This document shows, piece after piece, positions 6,706 to 64,000 of a stretch of DNA of 64,000 nt. A program made the position numbers and the translations under genes. This DNA comes from a virus, in IMG/VR virus record IMGVR_UViG_3300045988_150084, one strand, 5' to 3'. The first letter of the stretch is position 1. Every line of letters starts with the position of its first letter. The notes beneath the pieces are model-generated. The model was given only the letters and a program-made list of their open reading frames with translations, was not told where the DNA came from and ran no database searches.

Positions 6706-6716
6706 GCAGTACGGCT

Positions 6717-8249: not shown

Positions 8250-8262
8250 TATCTATTCCTCC

Positions 8263-10018: not shown

Positions 10019-10100
10019 AGCTCAAAAAAGTAATCATAGTTACCTCAACTTTCTATGAATAAACTTGCAACTAATTAAAACAAATAGCATATAGTTACTG

Positions 10101-10322: not shown

Positions 10323-10325
10323 TCC

Positions 10326-18679: not shown

Positions 18680-18722
18680 GTGAGCGTAGATGATTTTTGC
18701 TTATCGAGAAGGAGGAATTGCC

Positions 18723-46089: not shown

Positions 46090-46273
46090 ATAAATCCTCC
46101 TTCGGATTGTTCTTTTGATTAGAATATGCTATACTTAATTGGTGAATTTAATACGACAGAACGAATAAGCCTGTTGTATATTATAGGTACAAAATAACAA
46201 AAATGTTCCTTTACGCATCGGGGAATATTTGCTATAATGTACCTAAGTAAATTGTGTGTTTTTCTAGAATGGA

Positions 46274-47286: not shown

Positions 47287-47388
47287 ATTGTCATAACCTT
47301 TCGTAATAGATTTCAGTTTTTCGTCAATGAGGGTTTCCCCTCAAAGACAAGAAAAGAGAAGAGATAGTAACCTCTCCTCCATCATTCA

Positions 47389-48207: not shown

Positions 48208-48224
48208 ATTAATTCTCCTTTTCT

Positions 48225-48623
48225 TTATGCAAAAATTAACGGACGATAACGCTGTGCATATTTATATACGCCCTTCGTGTCAGATGGAAGGTTATAGCAC
48301 GAACCAACGAAAAAATCCTCCTCGCGCAGCTCTTCCGTAATGATTCGCTTCATAGCTTTCAAATCTGCCCTCGATTTAGCATAATAATCTACGCACAAAA
48401 AACCTCTCAGCACATAAATATTATCCGTTTCAGTTGCGGACGAGAAATATATGCTTACGAAGTTTACGTTATCAACTGTGGCGTAACTAAGCGGCGTTAA
48501 TTCCCTGCGGATTCGCTGATTAATTTCGCCCTCGGTTTTTGGATTTCCCAGCAGTTTTATGAGGTCTTTATTCTTTTTGAGCTTGCGGTAAACATCATCA
48601 AGGACTCCCATATCATCTGTCAT
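48225..48623 (-). CDS. Tail completion/terminator-like protein (132 aa)
   Basis: Synteny. Confidence 0.4.
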   Translation of the reverse strand: MTDDMGVLDDVYRKLKKNKDLIKLLGNPKTEGEINQRIRRELTPLSYATVDNVNFVSIYFSSATETDNIYVLRGFLCVDYYAKSRADLKAMKRIITEELREEDFFVGSCYNLPSDTKGVYKYAQRYRPLIFA

Positions 48624-49255
48624 AGAGAAATTCTCACCTTCTTCATTTCACTCTTAAAATATCTAGCGACACATTCGACAAAAACGTTGTGAATCTCTTC
48701 TTCCATATCGGAGAGGAGATTATTGTCCAGCAGCGCCCTTTTTAGAACATGATAAGCTGGAGATGGTGTGTAGAAATAGCCATCAATTTTCAGTCTGTGG
48801 TTGCGTCCTCTGAGGTTTATATGGCGTGAAGACCACCAATCCTCAAGGTTTACCCACTCAGCACTACCGCTAGAGGAATATTCGTTTCCGTCAAGGTCTT
48901 TATATACGCCCTTCGGTCTACCCATGATAGCCAAGCCATCCGCAAGACGGTTTTTGTTGAAATTGGAAGAAGCCAAGTAATTGGACAGGTATGGATTCTC
49001 ATCCGATTTGTCCATTAGGCTGCCCTTTCCGTACTCAGCAATCCACGCCTTCTGTCCCCACGCTTCTACGATATAGCTCACAACTGCATCCGTTGGATAA
49101 TATTGCCCAGTAGATAAGATGTGTGCTTCACCGTCAATCGTGTTCATCTTCTGCCACTCTGTACGAACGTTATCTTTTGCCGCTTTGATATATTTTGAGA
49201 CAACCCTACGGACACCTTCACCAAGGTTTTTCCCTAGGTCAAATCTTCTACTCAT
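48620..49255 (-). CDS. Head-tail joining protein (211 aa)
   Basis: Synteny. Confidence 0.4.
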   Translation of the reverse strand: MSRRFDLGKNLGEGVRRVVSKYIKAAKDNVRTEWQKMNTIDGEAHILSTGQYYPTDAVVSYIVEAWGQKAWIAEYGKGSLMDKSDENPYLSNYLASSNFNKNRLADGLAIMGRPKGVYKDLDGNEYSSSGSAEWVNLEDWWSSRHINLRGRNHRLKIDGYFYTPSPAYHVLKRALLDNNLLSDMEEEIHNVFVECVARYFKSEMKKVRISL

Positions 49256-49827
49256 AGGTTACGGTTATCGTCGCTTGTCTGAACCGCAAGGAGTCCAGCA
49301 AACTTCGTGGTGTCAATAGCGTCTACACAATAGTTCTTGCTGTCGAGTGTGATACGGTCAAGTAACTTAATATCGCAAATCGGAACGCGGAACTCTTTTG
49401 TCGTGCTAGGAAGAAGCCCTGCATCCATCATTCGCATATTGGCATTTACTGTCACATGATTGCATGGCGTGTCGAGAACATGAACCAGTTCCGTGCCAAT
49501 CAAATCACCGTCTTCGTTATACTTCTCTTCGCCCTTCCTTGTTACGGAGATAGCGCCGTTGCACATATACACCGTAGCTTGCACCGACTCGGCAGAGGGA
49601 CGTAATGCAACAACGATGAAATTTTTCTTAGTTCCCTTTATCGTGCAGGAAAACAGGTCACCATTTTGGAGCTCCGTGTTCTCTTGAAGGAGTCCAGTAA
49701 AAACAAAGTTGCTCTTGAAGTTAGAAGCATTACTTTTACCGACTCGTGTGAGAACAATCTTTTCTGGGTCTTTACCGACAATATCAATCGGCTGTTTGAA
49801 CCTATTAAAAAGCGCGAACATCGGCAT
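49252..49827 (-). CDS. Head-tail joining protein (191 aa)
   Basis: Synteny. Confidence 0.4.
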   Translation of the reverse strand: MPMFALFNRFKQPIDIVGKDPEKIVLTRVGKSNASNFKSNFVFTGLLQENTELQNGDLFSCTIKGTKKNFIVVALRPSAESVQATVYMCNGAISVTRKGEEKYNEDGDLIGTELVHVLDTPCNHVTVNANMRMMDAGLLPSTTKEFRVPICDIKLLDRITLDSKNYCVDAIDTTKFAGLLAVQTSDDNRNL

Positions 49828-50383
49828 TTAACCCCCTCAGAAGCATCTTGATGTCAGAAGTGAAGAAACTATCGTCTGTCATCATAATGTTAAAGTCAAG
49901 AGATGTTAATTGCTTTGCTCCAGCGAAACTCTGTGCCTGTCTGATATTGCAAGCAAGCATAGCCGTTGCCGTCTTGAGACGTTTAGGATACTCGTCGAAA
50001 CCACTCTTGTACTTGATTTCAAGTTTAGACGGTCTGGAGTGGAAGAGCATCATGTTAATATCGAAAGAGCCGATGTAGGTGAAGTACCCATCATTCTCAG
50101 TATCAAGCTCAATATCATTCACATCGAGAGCATTTGTACTCCTGCCGAACAACGTATCAGAGATACAGGTAACTGACTCGATTTCAATGATAGGAGAATG
50201 ACTGAGCTTTCCTCGATTAGTCTTAGATAGCTTTACCCTGTCAACGTATTCCTTTGGAACAAACGACCGACCAAGAAAGCTGTTGATAAGGTCTGTTGCC
50301 ATCGCTACATCTGAGGAATTAACTCCATCAATCGTAGAGCAATAAACAGGAATTTCTTCTTCTGTGAGGTACATATCACTCAT
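49805..50383 (-). CDS. Head-tail connector/adaptor protein (192 aa)
   Basis: Synteny. Confidence 0.4.
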   Translation of the reverse strand: MSDMYLTEEEIPVYCSTIDGVNSSDVAMATDLINSFLGRSFVPKEYVDRVKLSKTNRGKLSHSPIIEIESVTCISDTLFGRSTNALDVNDIELDTENDGYFTYIGSFDINMMLFHSRPSKLEIKYKSGFDEYPKRLKTATAMLACNIRQAQSFAGAKQLTSLDFNIMMTDDSFFTSDIKMLLRGLNADVRAF

Positions 50384-50570
50384 TGGAAATCAGCCCCATC
50401 ACCTTAACCTCTGCAAACTCCTCTGGATTGACAAGAACATACCCATCGTGAGCGATAACCGCGCGGTGTTTGAGAATAATGACATCCTCATTCGTTCTTA
50501 CCTTGTAGACAACATTCTTTGGAGTATCCTTCGGTGCAACCTTCGTCGTAGTGGTTTTTCTTCGTGGCAT
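50376..50570 (-). CDS. Small head protein (64 aa)
   Basis: ORF track entry between the capsid and connector genes. Confidence 0.35.
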   Translation of the reverse strand: MPRRKTTTTKVAPKDTPKNVVYKVRTNEDVIILKHRAVIAHDGYVLVNPEEFAEVKVMGLISNE

Positions 50571-50654
50571 TGAATCAACTCCTTTAGAAGCCGCCGCTGA
50601 CGCTTTTTGTTTATTTGTTGGCTTACCAAGCGACTTATTACGAAAGGTTAGAGA

Positions 50655-51713
50655 TTAGTCGTGACTTGCCCCAGCACCAGCCGTAGCGTTCGTGGACGGA
50701 CTCTCATCTGTCTTGTTGACCGTGATAACATCCGTACCAACAGGAACCGTAGCCTCCGTCTCGCCGTCAATCGTGAGCAGGAGGTGACCGTAGTTACCGC
50801 CGCGCACGATGAACGTATCGAACAGAACCGCGATATAACGCTGTGCAAGGTCTTTCTCCGTGCCAAGCTGATACATACGCGGAACATCACTAGCCACGTA
50901 CTGACGCTCAAGGAGGTTCTCATCGACAATAGCAATCTTACCGACAGGGCAGTAAATATCCGTCACAATCGGCAGAACGCCAGCGACCGTCATAATGCCA
51001 GTCACCTTAATGCCAGGAAGAACCTCGACATCGTAGGTCTTGACCTTATCCTTCGCGTTAATCTCCTGAGACTCAAGTTTTGCCTTATCGAGCGGATTCA
51101 TGTAGATAGCAGTCGGCGTAACCTTGTACTTCTTGTTGTACATAAGCATAGCCACACCGTTGCGGATAGCCTCCGTCAGACGCGCGTCCTTAGCAATCGT
51201 ACCAGTCTTCTTAATCTGCGTGATGATGGAGCAATACTCGTGAGATGTGGAGTCCATGAGGTCTTTCGCACCGCCAGTCCACACAGCGCGGTCTTGTGCA
51301 TCGAGCATATCAGAGACAACTTCCGAAAGGTCTTGCGCTTGAAGGTCACCGAAAAGCCCCTGCTGCTGCGTAACCTCACGGTCAAACTTGCCGAACGTGA
51401 TACCATCAACCTCTGCGCGAATCAGAGCCGAACGCTCAACACGCTGGACTTGCGTATCAAGAGCATGGTCGATTGCACGCGGGTCAATGAACTTCTCCTT
51501 GGTGTCATGTGCGAGCTTCTCGAAGTAGCGCGTCGGATGGCCTGTTGCAGCCTTGGCCTTAACGCGCTGAAGGAGCGTACCCCGCTTGCGCGTCTTATCC
51601 ATAATCTGCGACTCGAAAACAGGGACATACAGTGCGCCTGTGCCGATATAGTCAGCCGTCGCGTTCGCGAAACTCATAAAGCGGCTCTCGCCGTCAAAAA
51701 GTCGAATACTCAA
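50655..51713 (-). CDS. Major capsid protein (HK97-fold candidate)
   Basis: 352 aa, directly downstream of the protease/scaffold gene. Called on position and size. Confidence 0.6.
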   Translation of the reverse strand: MSIRLFDGESRFMSFANATADYIGTGALYVPVFESQIMDKTRKRGTLLQRVKAKAATGHPTRYFEKLAHDTKEKFIDPRAIDHALDTQVQRVERSALIRAEVDGITFGKFDREVTQQQGLFGDLQAQDLSEVVSDMLDAQDRAVWTGGAKDLMDSTSHEYCSIITQIKKTGTIAKDARLTEAIRNGVAMLMYNKKYKVTPTAIYMNPLDKAKLESQEINAKDKVKTYDVEVLPGIKVTGIMTVAGVLPIVTDIYCPVGKIAIVDENLLERQYVASDVPRMYQLGTEKDLAQRYIAVLFDTFIVRGGNYGHLLLTIDGETEATVPVGTDVITVNKTDESPSTNATAGAGASHD

Positions 51714-51729
51714 ATTTTACCTTCCTCTC

Positions 51730-52752
51730 TTATGCCTGAAACTCGTCTTGATGCTCATTCCAGAGCTGGATTTTCTTCGCCCATTTCTGCTCTGCCGTCA
51801 GCTTATCGTTATCGTCGATAGCCTTGGAAAGCTCCATAGCCGTCTTCTTCTCACCGTCGAAACGCGGAAGGGATGCAAAGTCAACCTTCGTCTTGCGCTC
51901 TGGCTCTTTCTCCTCTGCCTTCGTCTCAACCTTCTTCTCGGCAAGTGTCTGTGCCATAGCGTCCTTGATACCAGCCGTGATAGCATCCTGCATAGCCGCA
52001 AAATCCATCTTCGGCTCTTCCTGCTTCGGCTCAGCCTTGTCTTCAACCTTGGACAGCTTTTCAACCGTCTCCGTCAGCGTCTTCATAGATGCTTCAAGAG
52101 CGGAAAACTTAGCGTCGAAAGCCTTTTTCTGCTCATCGAGAGCGTTCTTCGTTTCCTCGTTCAATTCTTCATTCTCCTTATTCATCATGGAACACATAAA
52201 CTTAGTATTCTGAAATGCCGCCTTGTTCTTGTAGAGGATTGCAACCCCTGTGAAGTGCGCTCCCAGCCCTGTAAGAGTCTGCGCTTTATCATCCCTCATC
52301 ACACCGTCAAAGTAAACTTCGACAGAGAACCCAAGAGAATCTTTTGCACTCTCAATCGTGTCACACACATCGGGAAAATCATTCTTCCACAAATGACCAG
52401 CAACAGCAATTTCATTACCGTTCAAATGAGCTTCATCAACCACGCCGACCTTAAATCGAGGAGCATGGTCTTTCAGATTATGTGCAGGGTCGCTAAAGAA
52501 ATCATCACTCCATTGGACGTTTACGCCGCTACCAGCAAGGGACTCCACATCAATATTTTCACTACTGATAATGGTTTTATATCCCATAATGCCGCCGCAT
52601 GGTGTACCGTCCGTGGGAGTATCAACATACCCAGCAACGCCGCTGAAATTCAATACGTCAGGATTGTTCTCGTCCTGCATCGTACTGAAACTAGAGAAAT
52701 TAAGCGTTACGCTCTTTCCCTCTGTCTTCTTCTGCTCGTTTCTTTTCGCCAT
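51730..52752 (-). CDS. Prohead protease fused to a scaffolding-like coiled-coil C-terminus
   Basis: An N-terminal globular domain followed by a long E/K/A-rich helical tail, between the portal and capsid genes. Confidence 0.5.
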   Translation of the reverse strand: MAKRNEQKKTEGKSVTLNFSSFSTMQDENNPDVLNFSGVAGYVDTPTDGTPCGGIMGYKTIISSENIDVESLAGSGVNVQWSDDFFSDPAHNLKDHAPRFKVGVVDEAHLNGNEIAVAGHLWKNDFPDVCDTIESAKDSLGFSVEVYFDGVMRDDKAQTLTGLGAHFTGVAILYKNKAAFQNTKFMCSMMNKENEELNEETKNALDEQKKAFDAKFSALEASMKTLTETVEKLSKVEDKAEPKQEEPKMDFAAMQDAITAGIKDAMAQTLAEKKVETKAEEKEPERKTKVDFASLPRFDGEKKTAMELSKAIDDNDKLTAEQKWAKKIQLWNEHQDEFQA

Positions 52753-54055
52753 CAGTCTTCTTTTTCACATCCTCTTTTTGGTCTTTGCCTAAACCATTAA
52801 ATCCACCAGTCTGCACAGCATATTTTTTATTCAATACCGATTTCATTTCTGCCTGAGTCATGTCGTTATACGGACTGTCAATATGCGGCATACCGATAGC
52901 ATTTCTATACTCTGCAAAGGTAATACCGTTGTTGTTCCATTGTTCCGTGAGCATCGTCTGCTTCTGTTGCTTCTGCGTCAGCGTGTCTTCAAAGACAAAC
53001 TCGAACTTCAAATAATCGCCCATACCTAAACGACCAATGATTTTCTTGTTAATCTCATCGGCAAGCAGTAAGCAATACGGACGAACCGCTTCATTAAGCA
53101 TGGACTCATTCTGCTCTTCCACAGTAGAACGGTCTGTATTGCTGCCCTGACCAAGTTTCTTAGGGTCAATACCAAAGGCAAGAGCAATCTCCGTGATTAA
53201 CTCTTTCTGCCATTCGAGGAACAGCCCTTCGTCACCGTCAGCACCAAGATGAAGTGCTTGAGCACCCTTTGTACCGCCGATAATTGCCTGTTCGCCGCGT
53301 CCCTGTACCTCTTCACGCCAATACTTTCTGAACGCATCGAGGTCTGCCTGTGAGACGTTCTCTCCAAGGTCAAGGGCATATTTAGGAATAGCATTGTCGG
53401 TCTGTGTAGAAGCGTATTCTTGAGCACTACTTAACGCATTGATATGCTGGAAAGCCGCTTCGATAGGAGATAAACCGTATGGCGTATCGACGGTCTTATT
53501 ATGCTGCAAATAAAGAACATCCTTGTCATACAGATACGTTCTATTCGCTCCTACGACCTGACAGAATCGGTAAAAATCTGGATTTGTGAAAAACCCTGTG
53601 ACATATTCAAGAGCGAAACCGTTAATCGGATATAACTTCATTGGTCTGCGAATGTCTCCAGTAAAGACAATCTCGGCCGCTCCATTATCTCCAATCAGGG
53701 TTTCATTGATAACCTGTCCCCAGAAAGACTCGTAGGTGTCTGTCTCGTTAGGGTGCAGGATAATATTCTCCAATGCTTTGATAGCAGCACCATAGGTACG
53801 TTTATCTCCTGCATTGGTAGGGACAATCCTCCAATTCTGCGCTAATACTCCGTCCCGAATAAGGGAAATAGCACGGTGAGGAATTGCCATTCGAGAAAAG
53901 TTCCGCAAGCTCCGTTCGTTTACCTTGATAAGCGAATCTTTTGGAGTAAAGTTAGGCAAAGAAATAATCGTCGTGGCAGACTGCCTTTGAAGGTGTCCGT
54001 CAGACGGTGTTTTAATGCCAAGGTGGAAAATCTTCCCGAAAGCTCTTATCTCCAT
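52700..54055 (-). CDS. Portal protein
   Basis: 451 aa immediately downstream of TerL, overlapping it by 10 nt. Confidence 0.6.
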   Translation of the reverse strand: MEIRAFGKIFHLGIKTPSDGHLQRQSATTIISLPNFTPKDSLIKVNERSLRNFSRMAIPHRAISLIRDGVLAQNWRIVPTNAGDKRTYGAAIKALENIILHPNETDTYESFWGQVINETLIGDNGAAEIVFTGDIRRPMKLYPINGFALEYVTGFFTNPDFYRFCQVVGANRTYLYDKDVLYLQHNKTVDTPYGLSPIEAAFQHINALSSAQEYASTQTDNAIPKYALDLGENVSQADLDAFRKYWREEVQGRGEQAIIGGTKGAQALHLGADGDEGLFLEWQKELITEIALAFGIDPKKLGQGSNTDRSTVEEQNESMLNEAVRPYCLLLADEINKKIIGRLGMGDYLKFEFVFEDTLTQKQQKQTMLTEQWNNNGITFAEYRNAIGMPHIDSPYNDMTQAEMKSVLNKKYAVQTGGFNGLGKDQKEDVKKKTDGEKKRAEEDRGKERNA

Positions 54056-55596
54056 TTTGTGAAAATCCCTCCCATCGGTGTTGGTTTCATGCGCGAGGAT
54101 AGTCCTCCAAAAACAAGGCGGTGAGACATATCAGGGAAAGCAGCAGAACAAATCATGTTAAGTGCATCCATTCCATCATCACTACCCTTTGGAAATCGTA
54201 AAAATTCGTTGACAAGTACAGTCTGGTCTTTGCGGAACTTGATGTATTTGTTCTTGATTCTCGGAATCATACCGCGAAGACGTAACTGCTTTTCAACCTT
54301 GCTGTTGTACTCATTAATTGGAATCTGAATACCAGCGTTCAGACCTCTCTTAGCAACTTCATCCTTGAACATTGCTTGGAACTGAACTGTCTCAATCGTC
54401 ACCGAAACAAGGTGGCTCTGATATTTCATAGAACCCGCAATAATGAGGTCAATGAGCCTGTCTGGCTTAAATCTTCCCATAGTCACATCAAGTACATAGA
54501 GGAACCCGTTCTCATCCTTACCAGCGAATATGATTGCTGCTCGGTCTGATTTTGCCTTGCCAAGAGAAGGGTCAACAGCGCCATAAACTTCCTTGATTTC
54601 TGGAAGTTCATAGTAGTAATCAAACCACTCAGGAAGGAACTCCGCGTTCGCAGGGTCAATCGGTTCATTCTGATACTCACTTGCAAAAGAACTACTATCG
54701 GAAACCCGAAGTTCCATCATATTCTCGTAATAATCTGGAGAACTCTCAGGCCAAAGAGATTCGACACCTTTAAGCATCTCATCTCTGTGCTTCTGATAGA
54801 ATTGATAGGCATCTTCGCCAGCCTTAGGGTTGTGCTCGTCCGTGAGAATTTGTTCCCAATCATCCCACAACGGAGAATCCGAAAAGTGCTGTACCGCTTG
54901 GTATCTCTTTCTGTCCCACATTGAGAACGCAGGAGCAGTTAAGAGCTTTTGCAGTAATGACTCATAGTGAAGCACCGTCCCAATATAGATATAGTCGCTT
55001 GTTGGTGTACCTACTGGGATAAGGGCTTTCATAAACCAGTTGAACAACTTTTTTCGTTGCGCTTCTGTCTCTACGTTTTCATCGTTCTCCAAATCATCGA
55101 TGATGATTAACTCAGGGCGAATCGAGCCGAACTTATTACCGCGAAGTTTCTGTCCAGCACCACGGCCATAAACCTGTACACGGTTAGAAGTAATAATCTT
55201 ATCTTGCGCCCATTTCTCTTCCGAAACAAGGTCACCAAAATCGGTTTTGATAAGGTCATTTTCTTCAAGTTCTGTCTTTATCGCCGAGATGAAAGAACGC
55301 GCTTGGTCTAACGTATCAGAAACGAGCAAAATGTTCCTTTTGTACTTGTAAACTATGCACCAGATAATCAGCAAAAACGAGATAACCTGCGACTTACCAT
55401 GTCCACGCGGAGCGGCTCGAACATAGAAGTTTTTTCGTCTTTTTCTCCTCAGAATCATGTCCTCTGCGGACTTGAAAATTTCCTTGTGTAAAGGGGAAAA
55501 TGCACAAGAAAATACCGAGGGGAAATAGGTAAGAGCGAACTTTTCAAGGGAAGTAGCACAGTCTTTCATGCGCTGTCCCGCGTCCTCTCTATCCAT
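54046..55596 (-). CDS. terL: Terminase large subunit
   Basis: Walker A motif RAAPRGHGKS, an ATPase N-domain and a nuclease C-domain, 516 aa. Confidence 0.8.
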   Translation of the reverse strand: MDREDAGQRMKDCATSLEKFALTYFPSVFSCAFSPLHKEIFKSAEDMILRRKRRKNFYVRAAPRGHGKSQVISFLLIIWCIVYKYKRNILLVSDTLDQARSFISAIKTELEENDLIKTDFGDLVSEEKWAQDKIITSNRVQVYGRGAGQKLRGNKFGSIRPELIIIDDLENDENVETEAQRKKLFNWFMKALIPVGTPTSDYIYIGTVLHYESLLQKLLTAPAFSMWDRKRYQAVQHFSDSPLWDDWEQILTDEHNPKAGEDAYQFYQKHRDEMLKGVESLWPESSPDYYENMMELRVSDSSSFASEYQNEPIDPANAEFLPEWFDYYYELPEIKEVYGAVDPSLGKAKSDRAAIIFAGKDENGFLYVLDVTMGRFKPDRLIDLIIAGSMKYQSHLVSVTIETVQFQAMFKDEVAKRGLNAGIQIPINEYNSKVEKQLRLRGMIPRIKNKYIKFRKDQTVLVNEFLRFPKGSDDGMDALNMICSAAFPDMSHRLVFGGLSSRMKPTPMGGIFTKWR

Positions 55597-55777
55597 TACC
55601 GCCTCGGCTGACGTAGTTTCCTCGATTGCCTTTGCTAACTCATCAAAATATCTTTTCTGCTTTATAGAATCACCCCTTTTAGTGCCTTGTCCCTGTCAGC
55701 ACCTTGGACACTCCCAAATTGCATGTCTTCCTCGTGCCTCAGCCTCGTGCCTACACTCATAAGCTAGGACTTTTGTT

Positions 55778-56317
55778 TTAGATGGCTCTGATTGTCTCGA
55801 ACATATCCGAACGTCGAAGCTCTTCAAAGACCTCGGCTTTAACTTGCGGGTATCTGTCTAGGATTTTCAAAAAGACTTCAAGAACTTTTCGCACCTTCTG
55901 GATGCCTAGCTGTTCTTTCTGAATTCTTGAAACGCTCTCGTTCAAATCTTCGAGAAACTTGCACGAATGGAGATAGGCGTTTGAGATGGAGGAAATCTCA
56001 GACAGCTTCTCTTCATCGTCTTTGAGGTTATCGAGTATTCTGCCGAGCTTGTTTGTATGCCTTACAAGACGGTTGCGGACACTCCATGCCTCGGAAAGAG
56101 CATTAAAGCGATTAACCGCTGTTGCGACATCATTCCTGCCTACGTCCGTTAAGCCATGCGCGGCGCAGTATCTTGAAATAGTCATTTTGTTCAACGGCTG
56201 CTCGCCAGCTGGGAGGGATTCTCTGTTGATTACATCGGCTACTTCTTCACAGGTAAGCGTCTTGCGGAGTTCAAGAACCTTCCTACCCAACCCGAGTTCA
56301 TCAATCCTGTACTTCAT
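55778..56317 (-). CDS. terS: Terminase small subunit (HTH)
   Basis: Upstream of terL, with an N-terminal HTH (LTCEEVADVINRESLPAGEQPLNKMTISRYCAAHG). The ATG at 56317 follows a GAGAGGTGA RBS. Confidence 0.5.
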   Translation of the reverse strand: MKYRIDELGLGRKVLELRKTLTCEEVADVINRESLPAGEQPLNKMTISRYCAAHGLTDVGRNDVATAVNRFNALSEAWSVRNRLVRHTNKLGRILDNLKDDEEKLSEISSISNAYLHSCKFLEDLNESVSRIQKEQLGIQKVRKVLEVFLKILDRYPQVKAEVFEELRRSDMFETIRAI

Positions 56318-56341
56318 GTAATCACCTCTCAATTTGTCCTC

Positions 56342-56376
56342 TCATATATTATCTATGGTGGCTTTTCAAGTAAAAA
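56342..56376 (-). promoter_or_regulatory. Conserved upstream element, copy A (TTTTTACTTGAAAAGCCACCATAGATAATATATGA on the minus strand), upstream of terS
   Basis: 31/35 identical to copy B at 57946-57980. Contains TTGAAA and TAATAT boxes. Confidence 0.45.
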
Positions 56377-56640
56377 AGGGCTGAAATTCCAAAAAAAATC
56401 ATTTTTAATCAAATTTTTAACTAAAATAGCTATAAGATATATCTTTTATAAAGAACCTGAGAGTAAGAACAGGAAGTTGACCTCGGATGCGACGAGGACA
56501 TGAAGCGATGATTTTGTGACTATATTTTCGTGCTCCTTGTGACGCTCCAGAGCAAAGATGTCATTTTTCGCGTTTTTTACGATAAAAAGTACCCTCGATT
56601 TTGCCACGCGATAACTTATACCTGTGAAAGATTCGAGAGG

Positions 56641-56670
56641 GATTTCCTTCGTAAATTTACGAAGGAAATC
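56641..56670. repeat. Perfect 30-bp palindrome gatttccttcgtaaatttacgaaggaaatc
   Basis: The first half is the reverse complement of the second half. It lies 25 nt downstream of the ORF 56695..56982 stop and 310 nt upstream of terS. Confidence 0.6.
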
Positions 56671-56694
56671 CGCTTAAAATCGATTTTACGTTAA

Positions 56695-56982
56695 TTACCT
56701 ACCCCCTTTTCCCTTGTTGAGAGTCTTCATAGCGGCAGAACGAGCTTTTTTTGTGCTGTCAGAAATACTATTTTTCCCACGTCGGAATGTAAGTAGCTTC
56801 TTTGGAACTCGATATTCTACTGCCCAGATATGTCGATTGGTCTTGAATACCTGATAGCGTGGATAAATCTTGTCCAGCTTCGTAATCATCTTCGTGTCGC
56901 TTGTCCAAATCCTCATCTCGTCAGGCTCTCGCTCAAACTCAATAACGGTTTCTTGTTCTTCTTTTGCTGTGTACTCTTTCAT
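56695..56982 (-). CDS. Hypothetical basic protein (96 aa)
   Basis: The ATG at 56982 has an AAGGAG RBS 7 nt upstream. The ORF track extends upstream without an RBS. Confidence 0.45.
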   Translation of the reverse strand: MKEYTAKEEQETVIEFEREPDEMRIWTSDTKMITKLDKIYPRYQVFKTNRHIWAVEYRVPKKLLTFRRGKNSISDSTKKARSAAMKTLNKGKGGR

Positions 56983-57492
56983 GTAAACTCCTTTCAGCGT
57001 TCGGCTAAAGCCGAATTGTCTTTTCCAGACAATCAAATGTTTGCTAATCGAGGAAATAGGGTTGTGACTGCCTACAAGCGGCGTAGCCGCATACCTAGCC
57101 ATATAGATATATTTATACCCATTGGTCGTGCGAAGGGGCTTAGAGCGAACGTCAGGCGGTCGGTTTCTATCGACGGCGTGGCTTCGTGATACGCCCGAGT
57201 GCGTGGTGAGCGGAACACACACTCTTGGTTCGTCTGCTTGATATATATAAATACATCTACACAGATTGAAACATGAATGTTTCTTTTGCTAATCTCTTAC
57301 AGAGAGTTTTACTAATCGGAGAAGTTGGTCGGGGGAAGGCTTGTCAAAGCCGACACCGATATTATTTATTTAAGATATACGTTAGTATAGATTAAATAAA
57401 TAATACATTTTATTAACACCCTTGTATGTATATATATTAATTAGATGGGGTAATTTTTCCCCCTAATTGTGCTGCCTGTCAGATTTGCCCCC

Positions 57493-57795
57493 TCAGATGG
57501 TGATTTTAAGTCGATACAGAGACGGGACTCCCCTCTGGCGCGATGGTGCATATTCAATCATTCCCTTCTCGATTAGTTCCCTTCTTGCTCTATGAATCGT
57601 TTTTCTGGCCATTCCAGTATCTTGAACCGCTAGGCGGTCTGTGTAACAGAACTCTCCTTCTCTGCCCTTCCAAGACAAAATGAGAAACAGTTTCAATGCC
57701 GATGGCGAGGTTTCCTTGATTCTCTTGATAAATTCGTAGTTCACTTCTTCCTCCTGTGATTCTTCTTCCTGATTCGCGACCATTTCAGCCGACAT
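57493..57795 (-). CDS. Winged-helix transcriptional regulator (100 aa)
   Basis: An acidic N-terminus followed by a wHTH-like KTIHRARRELIEKGMIEY. Confidence 0.45.
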   Translation of the reverse strand: MSAEMVANQEEESQEEEVNYEFIKRIKETSPSALKLFLILSWKGREGEFCYTDRLAVQDTGMARKTIHRARRELIEKGMIEYAPSRQRGVPSLYRLKITI

Positions 57796-57926
57796 TTCAC
57801 CTTTGCGCCGCTATACACTTTCTTCCGATGGGGACATTCATAGACACCTTCCCAGTAGTATAACCCCTGACAGTACATCAAAGCATAGTTCCTCGATAAG
57901 CCGATTTTGTTTCCTAGTATCTTCAT
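57741..57926 (-). CDS. Small basic protein (61 aa)
   Basis: ATG with a GAAGGGGGAA RBS, directly downstream of conserved element copy B. Confidence 0.35.
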   Translation of the reverse strand: MKILGNKIGLSRNYALMYCQGLYYWEGVYECPHRKKVYSGAKVKCRLKWSRIRKKNHRRKK

Positions 57927-57945
57927 GGCGTAAAAATTCCCCCTT

Positions 57946-57980
57946 CATATATTATCCGCGGTGACTTTTCAAGTAAAAAC
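57946..57980 (-). promoter_or_regulatory. Conserved upstream element, copy B
   Basis: tcatatattatccgcggtgacttttcaagtaaaaa is 31/35 identical to copy A. Confidence 0.45.
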
Positions 57981-58453
57981 ACGCTCAAATACATTAAAGT
58001 TACATTAGAATTATATTATAGAAAGCTATAAGAGTTAACATGATGTAATGCTACCCAGTAACACTCAATCATATTGCCTTGACATCCCTTTTGCCATGCG
58101 CCCTCGGCGGCTCTGAAATTGTCCTCCCTGAGTGATACTTGACAATAGCGCGTAACACCGTGAGTAACGCCAAAAACTGCTGCCTATGTACACCCTCAAC
58201 AGACACCATCTTCCTCGATTTGTAAACTAAAAAACGCAAAGTGCTTGACGATGTATACGAGAATAAAGCGCCCCCTAGCTGGATTAAGTGTTTTTTGCAG
58301 GTTTGCCGAAAATTGCCCCATCTAGCCCCAATCCTTTAGTTAGTTGAAGAGCCTGTGAAGCCTTATACCACAAGGGCTGGCGGCACTTCCACGTTGCATA
58401 ATTGATATTATAAAACGATTGAGAATAATTTCCAATAACGTGTATTAATCAAG

Positions 58454-58974
58454 TTGTCTGACAATTTCTTATTGATAGATTTTCTCATTTACTTTGACCT
58501 TTTGTCCTATATCATTTCTGCATATTATGCGCGCGTATTATGCTATTTTTGTATGTACGCCTCCAGTGGACACGTTACTAAAATATACCCCTCTAGGGTA
58601 TACCAAAGTCAAACTTAATTTTACTTCTATTTTATCCAATTCAATTTAGCTAAATCGTTTTTATCCTTAGTAGCATCAAGGCTTTTCGCATATCCAGTCC
58701 CATTTAGTAATATATCTTGTTACATAATCATACCCGATATCATTAAGTCTTATTCAATCATACCTAGTAATACCCTTGCATATCGGAGAAGTGTGTTTTA
58801 GCAAAGTAAAGTAAATAGTATTCATACTTGATTGCTATGTTTTAGTAAAGTAAAGAGACAGGAAAATAGTCCTATTTAATTCTCTCAACCCTTGTAATTA
58901 CTAGCTTCATCGCCCTTGTACTCTCTCGATGCACATTTGTTTTGCCTTATCAAATTATTATTGTCTGACAATTT
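58454..58974. repeat. AT-rich noncoding region with several direct repeat families (iteron-like)
   Basis: TTGTCTGACAATTT appears twice (58454, 58961) and contains a TTGTC-N-GACAA palindrome. TTTTAG(C/T)AAAGTAAAG appears twice (58796, 58840). CCCTTGTAATTACTAGCTTCATC appears twice (58889, 58996). No ORF of 60 aa or more lies between 57930 and 59345. Confidence 0.55.
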
Positions 58975-59428
58975 ATTTTTCTTGTTGCCCGCCAGCCCTT
59001 GTAATTACTAGCTTCATCACTGTTTTCTACCTTTTTCTAATAAAACAAAATATCCATGCTCATATATCAACGCCCCGCCAGCCCACTAACTACGCCGCCT
59101 GATAGCCTTTTCGATTAGCAAAAAATCATCACTTTCTCTCATATAAAAATACACGCGAGGAAATCCCTTATTGATAATATTTCTCAAAGGAATTAAAAAT
59201 AAAAAGACTTGCACGTTATTCGTCGCTTGCTATAACAAAGTTGCAATCGGGAACGGCCCGAAAGGGAAATGAACCGAAAGCAATCCATCCGACGCCCGCG
59301 GGGGGGCCGAACAAGACGCCCCGCTTAAAAGAGAAAGAAAGGAGATGAAAAGGCCGCTATCAGGCCCAGCACGCCCGCCGCAGTCAACTTCTATTAATAG
59401 TTCTTTGAAAATTTCATATTGCAGGGGG

Positions 59429-59613
59429 GTTTCCGTCCCCTTACGGGGATTTTGTTTTTCAACGAAGAAGAGTTTTATTCGACCGTCGCGCCCGCTGATG
59501 AAAGTTTCCGTCCCCTTACGGGGATTTTGTTTTTCAACTAAACGAAGCAACAGCTTATTGCAAAAACTGTATAAAACAGTTTCCGTCCCCTTACGGGGAT
59601 TTTGTTTTTCAAC
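59429..59613 (-). CRISPR. Mini-CRISPR array with 3 identical 35-nt repeats (gtttccgtccccttacggggattttgtttttcaac on the plus strand) and two 40-nt spacers; type III-A-like repeat read on the minus strand
   Basis: Repeats at 59429-59463, 59504-59538 and 59579-59613 are identical. Spacers are 59464-59503 and 59539-59578. The repeat reverse complement GTTGAAAAACAAAATCCCCGTAAGGGGACGGAAAC has the hairpin plus ACGGAAAC tag layout typical of type III-A repeats. Strand is inferred from that. Confidence 0.8.
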
Positions 59614-59734
59614 ACGCTCGTCGGGAATAGAGTTACGCGAGTACCCTGCTATATGGATTAATATTGACCCGTAGACTCCGAGAACAGGGGACGCGGCCGG
59701 CGAGGGCCTCTAACGTGACAGGTTAGTAGGTACG

Positions 59735-59989
59735 GTGAACCACACTCAAGCCGGTTTTAAGAAGTACCGAAGGCCTTCTTGCGTCTCACACGACAACCGA
59801 CTCGGGGAGACAGGCCGGAGGGGCGTTAAGTTGCGCCCGCTTGTTGGCAGCACGGTATTACTTTATGTAGTATCGCCGGAGGTCGAGCAGTTCAATAAGG
59901 CCGAGTATGACGTCAAGGCGGGCCGCGTTGATAATCTCGGCGTGTTCTGTCAGCAGTTCATGCTGGCCGGTATGAAGGAGGTGAAGTAA
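59735..59989 (+). CDS. Doubtful ORF (GTG start, weak RBS) in the GC-rich region between the array and the early genes
   Basis: ORF track entry only. The region may instead be the array leader or a structured RNA. Confidence 0.2.
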   Translation: MNHTQAGFKKYRRPSCVSHDNRLGETGRRGVKLRPLVGSTVLLYVVSPEVEQFNKAEYDVKAGRVDNLGVFCQQFMLAGMKEVK

Positions 59990-59991
59990 AG

Positions 59992-60180
59992 ATGTTCTGG
60001 AAAGCGTTCCACTCCTACTACTACACGGAGGACGAGGAAGAACGTGCCGAACTGTTGCAGGACTTCCCCGCCGCCGTGCCGATGACGGAAGAAGAGTTTT
60101 ATTCGACCGTCGTGCCCGCTGATGAAATCATGGTGACGGGGAACTACCTTCACGCCTATGGAGAAGTAGATTTCCTGTAA
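59992..60180 (+). CDS. Small acidic early protein (62 aa); contains the spacer-1 protospacer
   Basis: ATG preceded by GGAGGTG. First in the plus-strand run of small genes. Confidence 0.55.
   Translation: MFWKAFHSYYYTEDEEERAELLQDFPAAVPMTEEEFYSTVVPADEIMVTGNYLHAYGEVDFL
60088..60127 (+). other. Protospacer-like self-match: 39/40 identity to spacer 1 (59464-59503), single C/T difference at 60113
   Basis: Aligned by hand. The mismatch converts GCG (Ala) in the spacer version to GTG (Val) in the gene. Confidence 0.85.
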
Positions 60181-60331
60181 GGCACGCGCCCAAACCGACC
60201 ATTTCCGGCCGCGCCGGGCGTTTGTTTTCGCGCTTGAACGCGCTACGAGCCTACGCAAGTTTCCCCGATTTGCATAGGTTTGCTAATGCTGTCAAGCAGA
60301 TTTGTTGTTTCTATCTAAGGGAGGAAAAACC

Positions 60332-60655
60332 ATGAAACTTGTCAATCTTACGCCGCACGCTATCAACATCTATGGGCAGGACGCGTCGACGGTGCTCGTC
60401 ACGGTCGAACCGACTGCGCCCGCCGCTCGTTGCGCCCAGCGCTCCGAGGTTTGCGGGTACGCAGGGGAAATCCCCATCTACCGCATGGAGTTCGGGGAGG
60501 TGGAGAACCTGCCCGAGCCTGTCGAGGGAACGGTTTACATTGTCTCGCGGCTGGTCGCTACGGCGGTCAATCGTGCCGATGTGTTCTGCCCTGGCGCGGC
60601 GGTACGCGACGAGGCTGGCCGTGTCGTGGGCTGTGTAGGACTGTCCCGCGTGTAA
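60332..60655 (+). CDS. Hypothetical protein (107 aa), markedly GC-rich relative to its neighbours
   Basis: ATG with an AAGGGAGGAAAAACC RBS. Rich in Ala/Arg/Val/Gly. Confidence 0.5.
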   Translation: MKLVNLTPHAINIYGQDASTVLVTVEPTAPAARCAQRSEVCGYAGEIPIYRMEFGEVENLPEPVEGTVYIVSRLVATAVNRADVFCPGAAVRDEAGRVVGCVGLSRV

Positions 60656-60738
60656 GAGAGAACAAGATACACAAAGGCACTCATGGAAACATGGGTGCTT
60701 TTATTGTGTTTTGTTCTAGTTCAAGGGAGGAATTGATT

Positions 60739-60969
60739 ATGAAGTCATTTACCTTTGGTGCGTGGAAAGTATGTATCTGGGAGGCCTTTGATGGTGTGTA
60801 CCAAGGGGAGGCTGTCCTAACGAAAGCCCCGCCGAAAGGCGCTGATGTACCTTCTATCATGCTGGAGGGTATTCCATTCATAGTAAGCTCGAAGGGAGTA
60901 GAGGGAAAGAACGTGAAGTATATCTTCCCGCCACTTATCCCGCGTATCCTCGACGCGCTCAAGGGCTGA
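60739..60969 (+). CDS. Hypothetical protein (76 aa)
   Basis: ATG with an AAGGGAGGAATTG RBS. The ORF track extends upstream in a spurious GC-rich frame. Confidence 0.5.
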   Translation: MKSFTFGAWKVCIWEAFDGVYQGEAVLTKAPPKGADVPSIMLEGIPFIVSSKGVEGKNVKYIFPPLIPRILDALKG

Positions 60970-61050
60970 AACAAGGCAGATAAAGCCGTCTATCGTGACA
61001 GGTAGGCGGCTTTCTTGTGTTTTGTTTTTCTCTAAAAAGGAGGTATTTTC

Positions 61051-61281
61051 ATGGAATTTGTACTGTACCACGACAGGGATTACGTCTCTGTTCGCGGGGA
61101 GGGTGCTCTGTATGTTCTGATGGACAAGGCGAGCGCGGAAATGATTGTTGATGCCGCGTTTGTGATTTTCCAAGACGGCACTACGGAAAGGGAGTTATGG
61201 GAGAACGCGACAATCCTCGAGCAGACGCGCGACAAGCGCGCTATTGCGGCTCTCAAACAGCAGTATAAGGAGGTGTATTAA
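61051..61281 (+). CDS. Hypothetical protein (76 aa)
   Basis: AAAAGGAGGTATTTTC RBS. Confidence 0.5.
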   Translation: MEFVLYHDRDYVSVRGEGALYVLMDKASAEMIVDAAFVIFQDGTTERELWENATILEQTRDKRAIAALKQQYKEVY

Positions 61282-61434
61282 ATGCGTACCGTAGCGACTT
61301 ACGGCTGTTATCAGCTGGAGCAGCTGGGCAACGGCCTTTTCCGTATTCTGCGGAACTGGCATCCGTTCAAGGAACTGTACCTCGTAGGGGAAGAAAACGC
61401 TAAAGCATACTTTTACGAGTTCGTTCGCGGCTGA
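61282..61434 (+). CDS. Hypothetical small protein (50 aa), not in the ORF track
   Basis: A TAAATG junction with the preceding gene. My own translation is MRTVATYGCYQLEQLGNGLFRILRNWHPFKELYLVGEENAKAYFYEFVRG. Confidence 0.35.
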   Translation: MRTVATYGCYQLEQLGNGLFRILRNWHPFKELYLVGEENAKAYFYEFVRG

Positions 61435-61515
61435 TTGATAGCGACGGAGGGAATAAGGCAACTCGTTCCTTCTACGGTGTTAACCAACTATCTATATCTA
61501 TGGGAGGTAATAACA

Positions 61516-61785
61516 ATGAAGTTAAACTGGCTTGAGGATGTAAAAATCCGAAACAAGAACTGGAAGGCCTCTTTAATGAGGTATGAACTTCCAAAACAGG
61601 GAAAGGTCTGGTACGCAGGATGGGTTCACTACAGCAGGAAATATCTCCGCGCCGAAAAACTGATGGGTACGGAGTGGGAAGGCGACGGCGTAACGGTGTA
61701 CCAAGCCGGCCGTATCTCTTTCGACTGGCAAGGCTGGGTTTCTCCCTTCATCTCCGCCGAGCTTGCGAAGAAGTGCAAGTTCTGA
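61516..61785 (+). CDS. Hypothetical Trp-rich protein (89 aa)
   Basis: ATG with a TATGGGAGGTAATAACA RBS. Confidence 0.5.
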   Translation: MKLNWLEDVKIRNKNWKASLMRYELPKQGKVWYAGWVHYSRKYLRAEKLMGTEWEGDGVTVYQAGRISFDWQGWVSPFISAELAKKCKF

Positions 61786-61872
61786 GAATCAAGGCAGAAA
61801 GAAAGCCGCTTATCGCAAAAGGTAGGCGGTTTTATTGTGCCGTGATTTTATCTATTAAGGGAGGAAACAACA

Positions 61873-62259
61873 ATGAAAGCAACAATGAAAAATGGGAAGG
61901 TAATCTATACCGACAAGGCAAGCGACTACGCGAAAAAGAAGGGGCGTCTTGACTATGCTTCTATGGTCGAGTGGTGTACGGAGGGGCAAATGGTGATGCT
62001 GTCCGTATCTCCGTGGAAACTCTCGGAGGACTGGCAAAAACAGGTCGAAGAGGAAGAGACGGAGGAGGCATACGAGGACGAGGAGGAAGAAGTTTTTCAG
62101 TGGTTTATCATTGACGATACTGCGGCAGATTTCTTTGCACAGCTCACGAACGAACTGATTTATTACAGCGAATACCTTGATATGTATCTGCTCGGCGTGA
62201 CTCATTGGGGAACAAGATGGGATTATGTTTTGACCGAGTGGAAACTGGAGGAGGAATAA
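61873..62259 (+). CDS. Hypothetical acidic protein (128 aa)
   Basis: TTAAGGGAGGAAACAACA RBS and an internal poly-E stretch. Confidence 0.5.
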   Translation: MKATMKNGKVIYTDKASDYAKKKGRLDYASMVEWCTEGQMVMLSVSPWKLSEDWQKQVEEEETEEAYEDEEEEVFQWFIIDDTAADFFAQLTNELIYYSEYLDMYLLGVTHWGTRWDYVLTEWKLEEE

Positions 62260-62262
62260 ACG

Positions 62263-62544
62263 ATGAAGGAGTGTAAAAACATCTACGAGTTAAAGGACTT
62301 TCCCTATGAAAAGTTTGATTACTGGGACGTAGAGGATTTGACGAAGAGCATCAAGAGGATTGTTGACAATACGGTAGAGGAACAAATCGAGGACGCTATT
62401 GCAGAAGAACAGGAGGAGACTGTTTACTGGCAAAACCTCGCCGACGACGTTGCGTCCGAGCGCGACGAATTACAGAAGGAGGTTGATGAGCTGAAAGAAA
62501 AGTTGAAGGAATACGAGGATGATGGGGAAGTCTTTCCATTTTAA
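62263..62544 (+). CDS. Hypothetical acidic coiled-coil protein (93 aa)
   Basis: CTGGAGGAGGAATAAACG RBS. Confidence 0.5.
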   Translation: MKECKNIYELKDFPYEKFDYWDVEDLTKSIKRIVDNTVEEQIEDAIAEEQEETVYWQNLADDVASERDELQKEVDELKEKLKEYEDDGEVFPF

Positions 62545-62556
62545 GGAGGAGTAACA

Positions 62557-62808
62557 ATGAAAATGAAAGCTATGCCGAGCGCGATGGACACGCTTCTCGA
62601 TTTGAGAGACAGCATTGTGCATGAACTGAATTACATTGAGAAAGCGCAGAAGGTGATGGATGAAGAGTATATGGGAGACTATTTCAAAGCGGTGAACAAG
62701 AGGAAGAAATCGTTCCTTATCGCGACATACAATATGCTCCCCGATGAGGTAGAGGAAGGTGTTATCAAGAAGGAAGGTGAAGAGGAATGGCACGAAAACT
62801 GGTTCTGA
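62557..62808 (+). CDS. Hypothetical protein (83 aa)
   Basis: TTAAGGAGGAGTAACA RBS. Confidence 0.5.
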   Translation: MKMKAMPSAMDTLLDLRDSIVHELNYIEKAQKVMDEEYMGDYFKAVNKRKKSFLIATYNMLPDEVEEGVIKKEGEEEWHENWF

Positions 62809-62936
62809 TTGTTCTCGGTGTGATTGGAATGGTCATTCATCCCTTTCAACGAGAGCGCATTTGCGTGTATAATGAGGATAACCAATTAGAGACGTTCGCA
62901 TACGGTGACCGTCCGATTAGCAAGCTGTGGAGATAA
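62787..62936 (+). CDS. Small membrane-anchored protein (49 aa), not in the ORF track
   Basis: ATG after a GAAGAGGA RBS. The protein has the MARKLVLIVLGVIGMVIHPF TM segment, and the ORF overlaps the preceding stop. Confidence 0.3.
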   Translation: MARKLVLIVLGVIGMVIHPFQRERICVYNEDNQLETFAYGDRPISKLWR

Positions 62937-63028
62937 TTGAAATGAAACTGAAAGGAAAAGTCACTATCTATGCCGACGATGAAATCTATGATGTGCGGTA
63001 TGATGTTGATTGAGAGGAGGTTTTTGAC

Positions 63029-63427
63029 ATGAAAAAGACTACGGTTCAGATTGTAGGCTTTGAAGGGTATGACAGTGATTTAGGAGGCTTTACGCTCCGT
63101 GTCCGCATTAACGGAACCGAGCATGAAATCATTAATCAATGTTTTCCGTATGAAGATGGCTATGCAGAGAGTCTGGTAGATGTGTATGGGAGCCGTGCAG
63201 ATTGCCTTTGCTTTGTAGATGGCAGAGACTGGTTACCAGAGGACTTCGTTTCTGATTGCGGCGGAGACGAGGAGTTTGCCGAGAAAGTGCTCCACTCTCT
63301 TGTAGACGAGGTGGTCAATGCGTATGGAATTTACGAAGAAGAAAGGACAGAGACAAGCGGTAAAGACAAAGAATACGAGCAGAAAGCGGCTAATGGCTGG
63401 TTTGTCGATGTAGAGTGTGGAGATTAA
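63029..63427 (+). CDS. Hypothetical acidic protein (132 aa)
   Basis: GAGAGGAGGTTTTTGAC RBS. Confidence 0.5.
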   Translation: MKKTTVQIVGFEGYDSDLGGFTLRVRINGTEHEIINQCFPYEDGYAESLVDVYGSRADCLCFVDGRDWLPEDFVSDCGGDEEFAEKVLHSLVDEVVNAYGIYEEERTETSGKDKEYEQKAANGWFVDVECGD

Positions 63428-63445
63428 GTAAAGGAAGGTAAGAGC

Positions 63446-63682
63446 ATGGAGTACATTAATTCTCGAGGCTGGCGTTATCGCGTCATGCGAGGAATTCCTA
63501 GCCTTCCGCGGTTCGACAACTGGTATGACACGTCGGCGAGGGGAACGGCATACAAGGCTTACCGCAAAACAAGCGGAGGTAGGTGGAAATGTGTCAGAAC
63601 GTTGCCATGGCGAGATACCAGAGAAGCGGCAGAGAAAGACCTGGCTGCGTATGCTGCTAGGCATGGGATGAAGGAGGAATAA
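63446..63682 (+). CDS. Hypothetical basic protein (78 aa)
   Basis: AAAGGAAGGTAAGAGC RBS. Confidence 0.5.
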   Translation: MEYINSRGWRYRVMRGIPSLPRFDNWYDTSARGTAYKAYRKTSGGRWKCVRTLPWRDTREAAEKDLAAYAARHGMKEE

Positions 63683-63684
63683 GT

Positions 63685-63927
63685 ATGAAGAGACGAGACG
63701 TGCAAGGCAACAAAGAGTTTGACAATGACAACGATACGGATGAGATGCTCAAATGGATGGGTATCTGCCTGTTGATTTATGCTGGCTTTTTTATCTTTGC
63801 CGCAGGATTAGCCAAGCTCATACTATCGACTGGTGCTAACCCAAGTGACTTGGTTTTTGGATGCGTTGTATTGCTGATTATTATTTGCTCATCGAGGGCA
63901 TTTGAGGACTGGAAAGACAGATTGTGA
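63685..63927 (+). CDS. Small membrane protein (80 aa, 2 TM)
   Basis: GGAGGAATAAGT RBS and two hydrophobic helices. Confidence 0.5.
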   Translation: MKRRDVQGNKEFDNDNDTDEMLKWMGICLLIYAGFFIFAAGLAKLILSTGANPSDLVFGCVVLLIIICSSRAFEDWKDRL

Positions 63928-64000
63928 GGAGGAATTAAAATGAAAGACAAAATTTTTCCGTGTATCTTATGGATATGTTGACAAGGCCGTGGATGGAGGA

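Follow-up and report, generated by a model that had tools for sequence, protein, structure and literature searches.

We identify, at positions 59429-59613 of the virus record IMGVR_UViG_3300045988_150084 (a stretch of 64,000 nucleotides, referred to throughout as the window), a compact CRISPR array that we read, on balance, as a leaderless mini-array derived from a host type III-A (Csm) system and used, through the Csm complex of the host, in conflict between the putative phage-plasmid that carries it and other mobile elements. Three 35-nt repeats of sequence GTTTCCGTCCCCTTACGGGGATTTTGTTTTTCAAC, with zero mismatches among them, occupy 59429-59463, 59504-59538 and 59579-59613 and are separated by two 40-nt spacers, so that direct repeats and unique spacers alternate regularly at a period of 75 nt. 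No further copy of the repeat occurs in the window even at up to 3 mismatches, and shuffled sequence gave 0 matches. In the order expected of the CRISPR RNAs (crRNAs), the array runs on the minus strand from repeat 1 (59579-59613, an exact copy with the minus-strand reading GTTGAAAAACAAAATCCCCGTAAGGGGACGGAAAC) through spacer 2 (59539-59578), repeat 2 (59504-59538, exact) and spacer 1 (59464-59503) to repeat 3 (59429-59463), which is likewise exact and not degenerate. The minus-strand guide of spacer 2 is the plus-strand sequence of 17204-17243 of the same genome, and spacer 1 agrees with its own genome at 39/40 positions and with a sister phage, L195, at 40/40.

To assign a type, we compared the repeat directly with arrays in genomes and metagenomes. 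A scan of one genome per species with the 3' 21-mer of the repeat returned 85 loci, whose full repeats were then ranked. The window repeat is identical over 35/35 nt to the arrays of L033/L087, two loci, with at least 31 repeats, that share one contig in the metagenome-assembled genome of an uncultured Selenomonas from the gut, and a metagenome scan with the full repeat yielded two further 35/35 loci, L097 and L098. The arrays of the Selenomonas genome adjoin cas1, cas2, cas10, csm2, csm3 and csm4, and L097 holds the complete set of cas1, cas2, cas10, csm2, csm3, csm4, csm5, cas6 and csm6 between two arrays. The host Cas10 has both HD and GGDD motifs, and Csm6 is encoded in the host locus. Because the same repeat brackets a complete cas10-csm-cas6 locus, we assign it, on sequence grounds, to a canonical type III-A system. 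Spacers in host arrays with this repeat measure 36-42 nt, as compared with 40 nt in the window. Within one array of L097, on the minus strand and in the three repeats upstream of the first exact copy, GGAAAT takes the place of GGAAAC at the end of several host repeats, a difference that represents repeat microheterogeneity within the Selenomonas type III-A locus.

Several features of the host arrays point to the minus strand of the window as the one that is predicted to be transcribed. In its GTTG...GAAAC reading, the repeat is preceded on the GTTG side by a leader that L087 and L098 have in common. In addition, the host arrays bear a decayed terminal repeat beside cas1, with array and cas operon on one strand; in the window array, by contrast, the final repeat is intact. 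The best Rfam match, CRISPR-DR18, also falls on the minus strand, with a score of 35 bits that lies below the gathering score of 50 and is thus a hint only. Read on this strand, each repeat folds into a 5-bp CCCC/GGGG hairpin followed by a tail of 7-8 nt that would supply the crRNA tag ACGGAAAC. A preliminary description of this DNA had called the repeat type III-A-like on the minus strand from its hairpin and 8-nt tag; the identical arrays at complete type III-A loci, the host leader, the repeat decay and Rfam all agree with that proposal, and a host locus of the kind it envisaged, with Csm and Cas6 genes beside a matching repeat, is present in L097 (cas10-csm2-5-cas6-csm6, 35/35 repeat). In the plus-strand reading, each repeat is a GC hairpin with a TTTTGTTTTT T-run behind it and is scored as an intrinsic terminator, so that three tandem terminators would confront any rightward transcription from a predicted promoter-like site at 59171-59200.

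Both guides match the genome in which they lie. Spacer 2 matches protospacer 2, at 17204-17243 on the minus strand, perfectly over 40/40 positions, where 0 matches are expected by chance. Spacer 1 matches protospacer 1, at 60088-60127 on the plus strand, over 39/40 positions, and its single mismatch (C59489 versus T60113) would form a G:U pair at guide position 15. The protospacers lie in the sense strand of two small open reading frames (ORFs), 59992-60180 (plus, 62 amino acids) and 17089-17286 (minus, 65 amino acids), and minus-strand crRNAs would therefore be antisense to both predicted mRNAs. The 3' flank that would face the crRNA tag is TCATGGTG for target 1 (60128-60135, plus) and, in mRNA sense, CGGTATTC for target 2 (17196-17203, minus). 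Each flank is identical at 1/8 positions to the self anti-tag GTTTCCGT, and when G:U pairs are included the positions able to pair with the tag come to 1/8 for target 1 and 2/8 for target 2. The preliminary description had likewise placed both guides antisense to these two genes and had put the tag complementarity of the flanks at 1/8 or less, a limit that our count matches for strict identity.

The two target genes are small and differ in their surroundings. Target gene 1 (59992-60180, plus) encodes a 62-residue ORFan, opens a rightward block of small genes and is called as a gene on 15 contigs; its product belongs to no Pfam or PHROG family. Target gene 2 (17089-17286, minus) encodes a 65-residue protein between a replication-initiator gene (17435-18211) and an Erf/Rad52 gene (16398-17111), and its family comprises 26 homologue clusters, many of them on phi29-like phages of 12.3 kb. 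Among the small early ORFs, neither Pfam nor PHROG searches revealed anti-CRISPR or ring-nuclease families.

The sister phage L195 points to outward targeting. Among 5.8 billion proteins, we find only two alleles of target 1, with Val in the carriers of the array and Ala in the sister phage, and the difference falls precisely at the codon covered by spacer 1. The Ala allele lies on a 58-kb contig of L195, whose identity to the window is 99.5% over 8.7 kb and which has 107 nt of unrelated sequence in place of the array, between the same conserved left and right flanks. Spacer 1 is identical over 40/40 positions to L195 10097-10136, where the non-tag flank is the same; the target lies 485 nt from the array. 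The Val allele is accompanied by the array in 4/4 informative contigs (those with enough upstream sequence), and the Ala allele occurs without it. As local divergence between the carrier and L195 amounts to about 9%, the single difference in protospacer 1 needs no special explanation. We considered whether the 107-nt insert of L195 holds a decayed repeat, on the strength of a 9-nt match (TTTCCGTCC), and rejected the idea, as 10% of shuffled sequences do equally well.

The target of spacer 2 is distributed more widely. It is present exactly in 10 further contigs, one of them a variant that is 94% identical, and is matched at 28-30/40 positions in sisters that are about 90% identical. Spacer 2 also matches 12.3-kb phi29-like phages at 35/40 positions, in the sense orientation and without pairing between flank and tag. 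Of its five mismatches to the phi29-like target, three fall at guide positions 36, 38 and 40, which are normally trimmed off during crRNA maturation by the staphylococcal Csm system. These very widespread phages encode a connector, a Phi29 major capsid protein, a Gp16 ATPase and a protein-primed polymerase, and their homologue of target gene 2, from a family of 55-65 residues, lies directly downstream of the capsid gene. A 180-bp gene (core AYCKNCIKHGIPIRIYAVDS) is common to the phage-plasmid (17089-17286) and to the phi29-like contigs L203-L205 (about 4194-4385) and L210, at 85.6% nucleotide identity. It is the only similarity between the two kinds of phage and suggests, from sequence, gene exchange in a common host.

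The array is a stable but not invariant feature of the element. Gut metagenomes that are independent of one another (SPAdes and MEGAHIT assemblies from different samples) contain the three-repeat form with the same spacers and flanks. One variant contig, L178 (9513-9622), lacks exactly one repeat-spacer 1 unit relative to window 59429-59613 and is otherwise 100% identical to the window left of the array, with 2 mismatches in 4.5 kb to its right. This pattern indicates a probable, very recent loss of the leader-distal unit, with gain the less likely direction. Together, the one-unit variant and the independent assemblies effectively rule out an artefact and point to turnover by repeat recombination; loss of spacers by this route is expected (PMC7099407), and L178 displays it. 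Elsewhere in IMG/VR, the exact repeat and both spacers are absent.

Comparison of the host leader with the flanks of the array reveals no homology on either side. The right flank (59631-59700), which is the leader side in crRNA orientation, is conserved phage sequence and not leader-like. The AT-rich left flank (59386-59428), which the preliminary description had entertained as a leader for plus-strand transcription, is a conserved phage element that is kept in L195, where there is no array, and is hence not an array leader. Because the array has no leader, its most likely origin is recombination with a host array rather than adaptation in place. On the minus strand, about 60 nt downstream of the array, a consensus scan picks out a weak terminator-like hairpin with a T-rich tail (59351-59367). 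A GC-rich island (59200-60700, 50-63% GC, compared with 44% for the phage) has the array at its left edge and also encloses target gene 1. A spurious ORF that spans the array, used as a protein-database query for other arrays, returned no matches.

These observations are consistent with a mechanism in which the array works against competing elements. It would be transcribed on the minus strand of the window, and host Cas6 would cleave each repeat to leave the 8-nt 5' tag ACGGAAAC, after which both guides would be loaded into the host Csm complex. The complex would recognise the transcripts of two small genes that the carrier has in common with other elements. Since neither target flank pairs with the tag, activation of Cas10 and Csm6 would follow, and competing elements would be excluded from a cell that already holds the phage-plasmid. 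The copies in the carrier (40/40, and 39/40 plus a G:U pair) would escape only while untranscribed, since a type III system depends on target RNA to interfere; another way of escape would be a lack of expression of the array or of Csm. Expression of the array, its direction of transcription and its tolerance by the carrier are all presumed here. Self-tolerance is the weakest link in this chain, and it requires a silence of both targets in the carried state that we assume. In a bolder form of this account, which we consider possible but doubtful, the phage-plasmid would turn the need of type III immunity for RNA to its advantage and so carry guides against sequences of its own. The guides would exclude even identical or near-identical sisters in addition to phi29-like lytic phages with the same small gene, the resident would escape only as long as its early and replication genes stay silent, and in Csm-positive hosts the array would also act as a brake on its own lytic induction.

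Several observations weigh against a role in conflict between elements. With two spacers only, the chance that both would be antisense is 0.25. The perfect self-match of spacer 2 means that the carrier is expected to be hit whenever it expresses the target, and target 2 lies in the replication operon near ParM, where it is possibly active in the plasmid state. A single G:U pair, moreover, should not spare target 1 from a type III effector. The best minus-strand sigma-70-like promoter upstream of the array, at 59934-59904, agrees with the consensus at only 8/12 positions, and no mini-arrays occur near the large terminase gene (terL) in 79 related IMG/VR loci. The putative host, a gut Selenomonas, is assigned from repeat identity and a related Selenomonas plasmid, and its loci have a GC content of 60%, compared with 44% for the phage. 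Approximately 500 spacers from arrays of the repeat family (about 60 of them from the exact-repeat Selenomonas loci) gave 0 matches to the window or to related phages, so that they provide no spacer-based link to a host and include no host array with spacer 1 or 2. Finally, an identical self-match is expected to be lethal or self-destructive (PMC7099407), and the tolerance of prophages by type III-A systems, although real, is leaky and costly (PMC5754349); the conditional tolerance put forward in the preliminary description could reconcile these points.

The explanation that ranks next in probability is that the array is a neutral relic, either a captured fragment of a host array with two anti-phage spacers or the product of spacer insertion in trans, which persists without function, for example in carriers whose hosts lack active Csm. 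We regard this as rather unlikely. It would explain why the array has neither leader nor recognisable promoter and is absent from all relatives, why a unit could be lost in L178, and why both guides are antisense to mRNAs, as host-selected spacers would automatically be; the carriers are, besides, almost clonal (100% identity between contigs), and persistence therefore says little about selection. Against a relic stands the fact that all three repeats, the last included, are still identical to the host consensus. Moreover, the association of the array with Val, and of its absence with a perfectly matching Ala allele, is the pattern displayed by functional viral mini-arrays (PMC6858448). The preliminary description had offered a different function, in which the array is a conditional self-guide or excludes related superinfecting phages. 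The latter part is supported by the matches to L195 (40/40) and to the phi29-like phages (35/40), but a dedicated self-guide fits poorly with a carrier that is matched at only 39/40 positions by spacer 1. On that proposal, the guide would be silent while the genes of the element are repressed and on their expression would trigger Csm, which would hold the plasmid state or abort induction. The 40/40 match of spacer 2 and the near-match of spacer 1, both of them oriented so as to permit interference and flanked by sequence that fails to pair with the tag, would suit it, as would the stability of the arrangement across samples, and type III-A systems are established to tolerate prophages in a transcription-dependent way (PMC5754349 and the work that it cites). 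We nevertheless consider it unlikely, because spacer 1 suits the sister phage better than the carrier and so points to outward targeting, because the element has no evident benefit from blocking its own induction, because the tolerance described in the same work exacts a price, and because L178 dispenses with the spacer 1 unit while being otherwise 100% identical.

Two further explanations have less to recommend them. The array might act as an RNA anti-CRISPR that soaks up Cas6 or Csm, as a plus-strand decoy that joins a protospacer to the perfect anti-tag GTTTCCGT, or as tandem terminators that insulate the leftward from the rightward region. The terminator scores of the plus-strand repeats and the conservation in the sister phage of the promoter-like site at 59171-59200 are in line with this group, and solitary phage repeats that inhibit Cas complexes are known (PMC10651486). 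The known inhibitors are, however, solitary repeats without self-matching spacers. A plus-strand transcript would end at the first repeat, before any spacer is reached, and a decoy would protect from just two host spacers, when no host spacer that we have seen matches the phage. This group of explanations is very unlikely in our estimation. An assembly artefact, in which a host array was joined to the phage through the identity of spacer and protospacer, is scarcely credible, even though all of the data are metagenomic and a long scaffold (scaffold_103) diverges from the window below 10448. The array lies between unique phage flanks and away from both protospacers, it is identical in independent assemblies produced by different assemblers, its flanks are conserved in the array-less sister phage, and the 40-nt identities are shorter than the k-mers given in the contig names. 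We also considered a regulatory role for the guides and rejected it, as the spacers match host cas loci over at most 11 nt. Exclusion of competing elements by way of the host Csm complex is the reading that we rank first.

The carrier itself encodes a tailed phage. The window contains genes for a Mu-type large terminase, a portal, a major capsid protein, a 2909-residue tape measure and an endolysin, together with a DNA polymerase III alpha subunit, a primase-helicase, an Erf/Rad52 recombinase and five tRNAs. Contig L178 (14009-17741) links window position 64000 to position 1 through 3731 bp, which closes a circle of about 67.7 kb; this closing piece encodes a 146-residue ORF, a tyrosine integrase, small ORFs, nrdG and the start of nrdD. 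From this linkage, we take the genome to be about 67.7 kb and circular or circularly permuted. The plus-strand ORFs 13-666 and 883-1407 lie opposite nrdD and are spurious. A ParM-type partition gene (18690-19634) is divergent from the replication-initiator operon (17435-18211), and the large terminase is 83% identical to that of pSRC4, a circular plasmid of 72,893 bp from Selenomonas ruminantium TAM6421 and the closest relative with a name. The layout of pSRC4 is also that of the element, with a terminase, 2-3 kb of non-coding sequence and divergent small genes that end at an integrase. Judged by these genes, the element is best described as a Selenomonas phage-plasmid, with maintenance as a plasmid the presumed state.

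No Cas family appears among the precomputed Pfam matches for window 1-6196, 10448-40717 and 49917-64000 and for the 3.7-kb closing piece; the intervals 6196-10448 and 40717-49917, which hold tape-measure, head and small genes, lay outside this screen. The small ORFs between 59735 and 63682 show no meaningful family, one of them having sub-threshold matches of coiled-coil type only, and GenBank phages gave no nucleotide match to 57000-62000. The 2.2 kb that separate the leftward structural from the rightward small genes (57796-59991) contain no convincing ORF, are AT-rich (30-40% GC) to about 59200 and have direct repeats of 26 nt at 58886 and at 58993. This stretch adjoins a small winged-helix initiator-like gene (57493-57795), has a counterpart in a similar gap of 2.7 kb in pSRC4 and may serve as a plasmid origin or a control region. 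Five clustered tRNA genes (5258-5862) specify Thr-UGU, Tyr-GUA, Gln-UUG, Lys-UUU and Leu-UAA, with anticodons that all start with U or G and read A/U-rich codon boxes; such a set would suit an AT-rich phage (44% GC) in a GC-rich host (about 60%). The long scaffold mentioned above (scaffold_103, our L201, 100.5 kb) is identical to the window from 10448 upwards, runs below that point into other phage-like sequence with a second portal and capsid set, and is either a chimeric scaffold or a recombinant.

Repeats of a comparable kind occur in other phages. The contigs L001, L002, L004, L005, L008 and L010 (IMG/VR contigs of 87-110 kb and one 10-kb fragment) are unrelated large phages with four repeats and one decayed copy, and their repeat is that of Megasphaera elsdenii (L023). 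A 77-nt stretch upstream of these arrays is 74% identical to the host leader, so that they are leader-bearing, unlike the window array. We found no sign that self-targeting is a habit of phage type III-like arrays, in that one of four Megasphaera-phage spacers was checked and had no other IMG/VR match. In L003 (9920-9955), L007 (about 9275-9370), L006, L009 and L011, we observe solitary or paired short hairpin-plus-tag copies (…CCCCGTAAGGGGACGGAAAC) without normal spacers, which may be candidates for solitary-repeat RNA anti-CRISPRs directed at Cas6 or type III-like systems.

Viral mini-arrays are thought to work only when the carrier is unmatched, and the array described here, whose repeat is of type III-A, breaks that rule. 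Alone among the CRISPR classes, type III can tolerate a silent self-match, and DNA-targeting mini-arrays cannot carry self-matching guides. A functional array would mean that mobile elements can use transcription-dependent immunity to exclude their kin, identical copies included, and that they possibly control their lytic switch by the same means. The human gut offers a trio in which this could be tested, consisting of the array-bearing phage-plasmid, an array-less sister with a perfect target and a phi29-like family with the second target, and all three are linked to a defined Csm locus of Selenomonas. Should the array prove to be no more than a relic, it would still record recombination between a host array and a phage-plasmid.

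Despite its similarities to several known systems, the window array is not fully described by any of them. The Vibrio phage ICP1, which acts against PLE, has its own type I-F cas genes, a leader and spacer acquisition. Its guides are phage-borne and face another mobile element in the same host, as we propose here, but the element in the window carries guides only. RNA anti-CRISPRs (PMC10651486) are also phage-borne copies of host repeats without cas genes; they are single repeats without spacers that poison Cas complexes, whereas the window has three repeats and two full-length targeting spacers. Like the window array, the prophage regulatory mini-arrays that repress host cas genes (bioRxiv 10.1101/2023.03.03.530964) are borne on a prophage and rely on host Cas proteins, but their spacers match cas promoters in part, and those of the window have perfect matches in phage genes. 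The conditional tolerance known from type III-A systems is alike in that a perfect target is tolerated while silent and attacked when transcribed; there, the spacer was acquired by the host and sits in a host array, whereas here the guides are carried by the very element that they target, and its tolerance is presumed.

The closest likeness is to virus-borne mini-arrays, exemplified by those of the Saccharolobus portogloboviruses SPV1 and SPV2 and by the phage and prophage arrays of Faure et al. 2019. Two accounts (PMC6858448, PMC11656645) describe such arrays as having 1-2 spacers, host-identical repeats and no cas genes, as being usually leaderless, and as having targets in nearby genes of close relatives. 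The window array agrees with the bacterial phage mini-arrays in being leaderless, and its spacer 1 follows the same arrangement, with a match in a near-array gene of a very close relative and a point difference at the site in the carrier. It departs from them in that its spacer 2 matches the carrier perfectly, a situation that the literature excludes (PMC7099407) and that sets it apart from arrays whose carrier is unmatched. It departs from them further in that its repeat is of type III-A, with a need for target RNA and none for a protospacer-adjacent motif, and in that one of its guides also reaches the unrelated phi29-like family.

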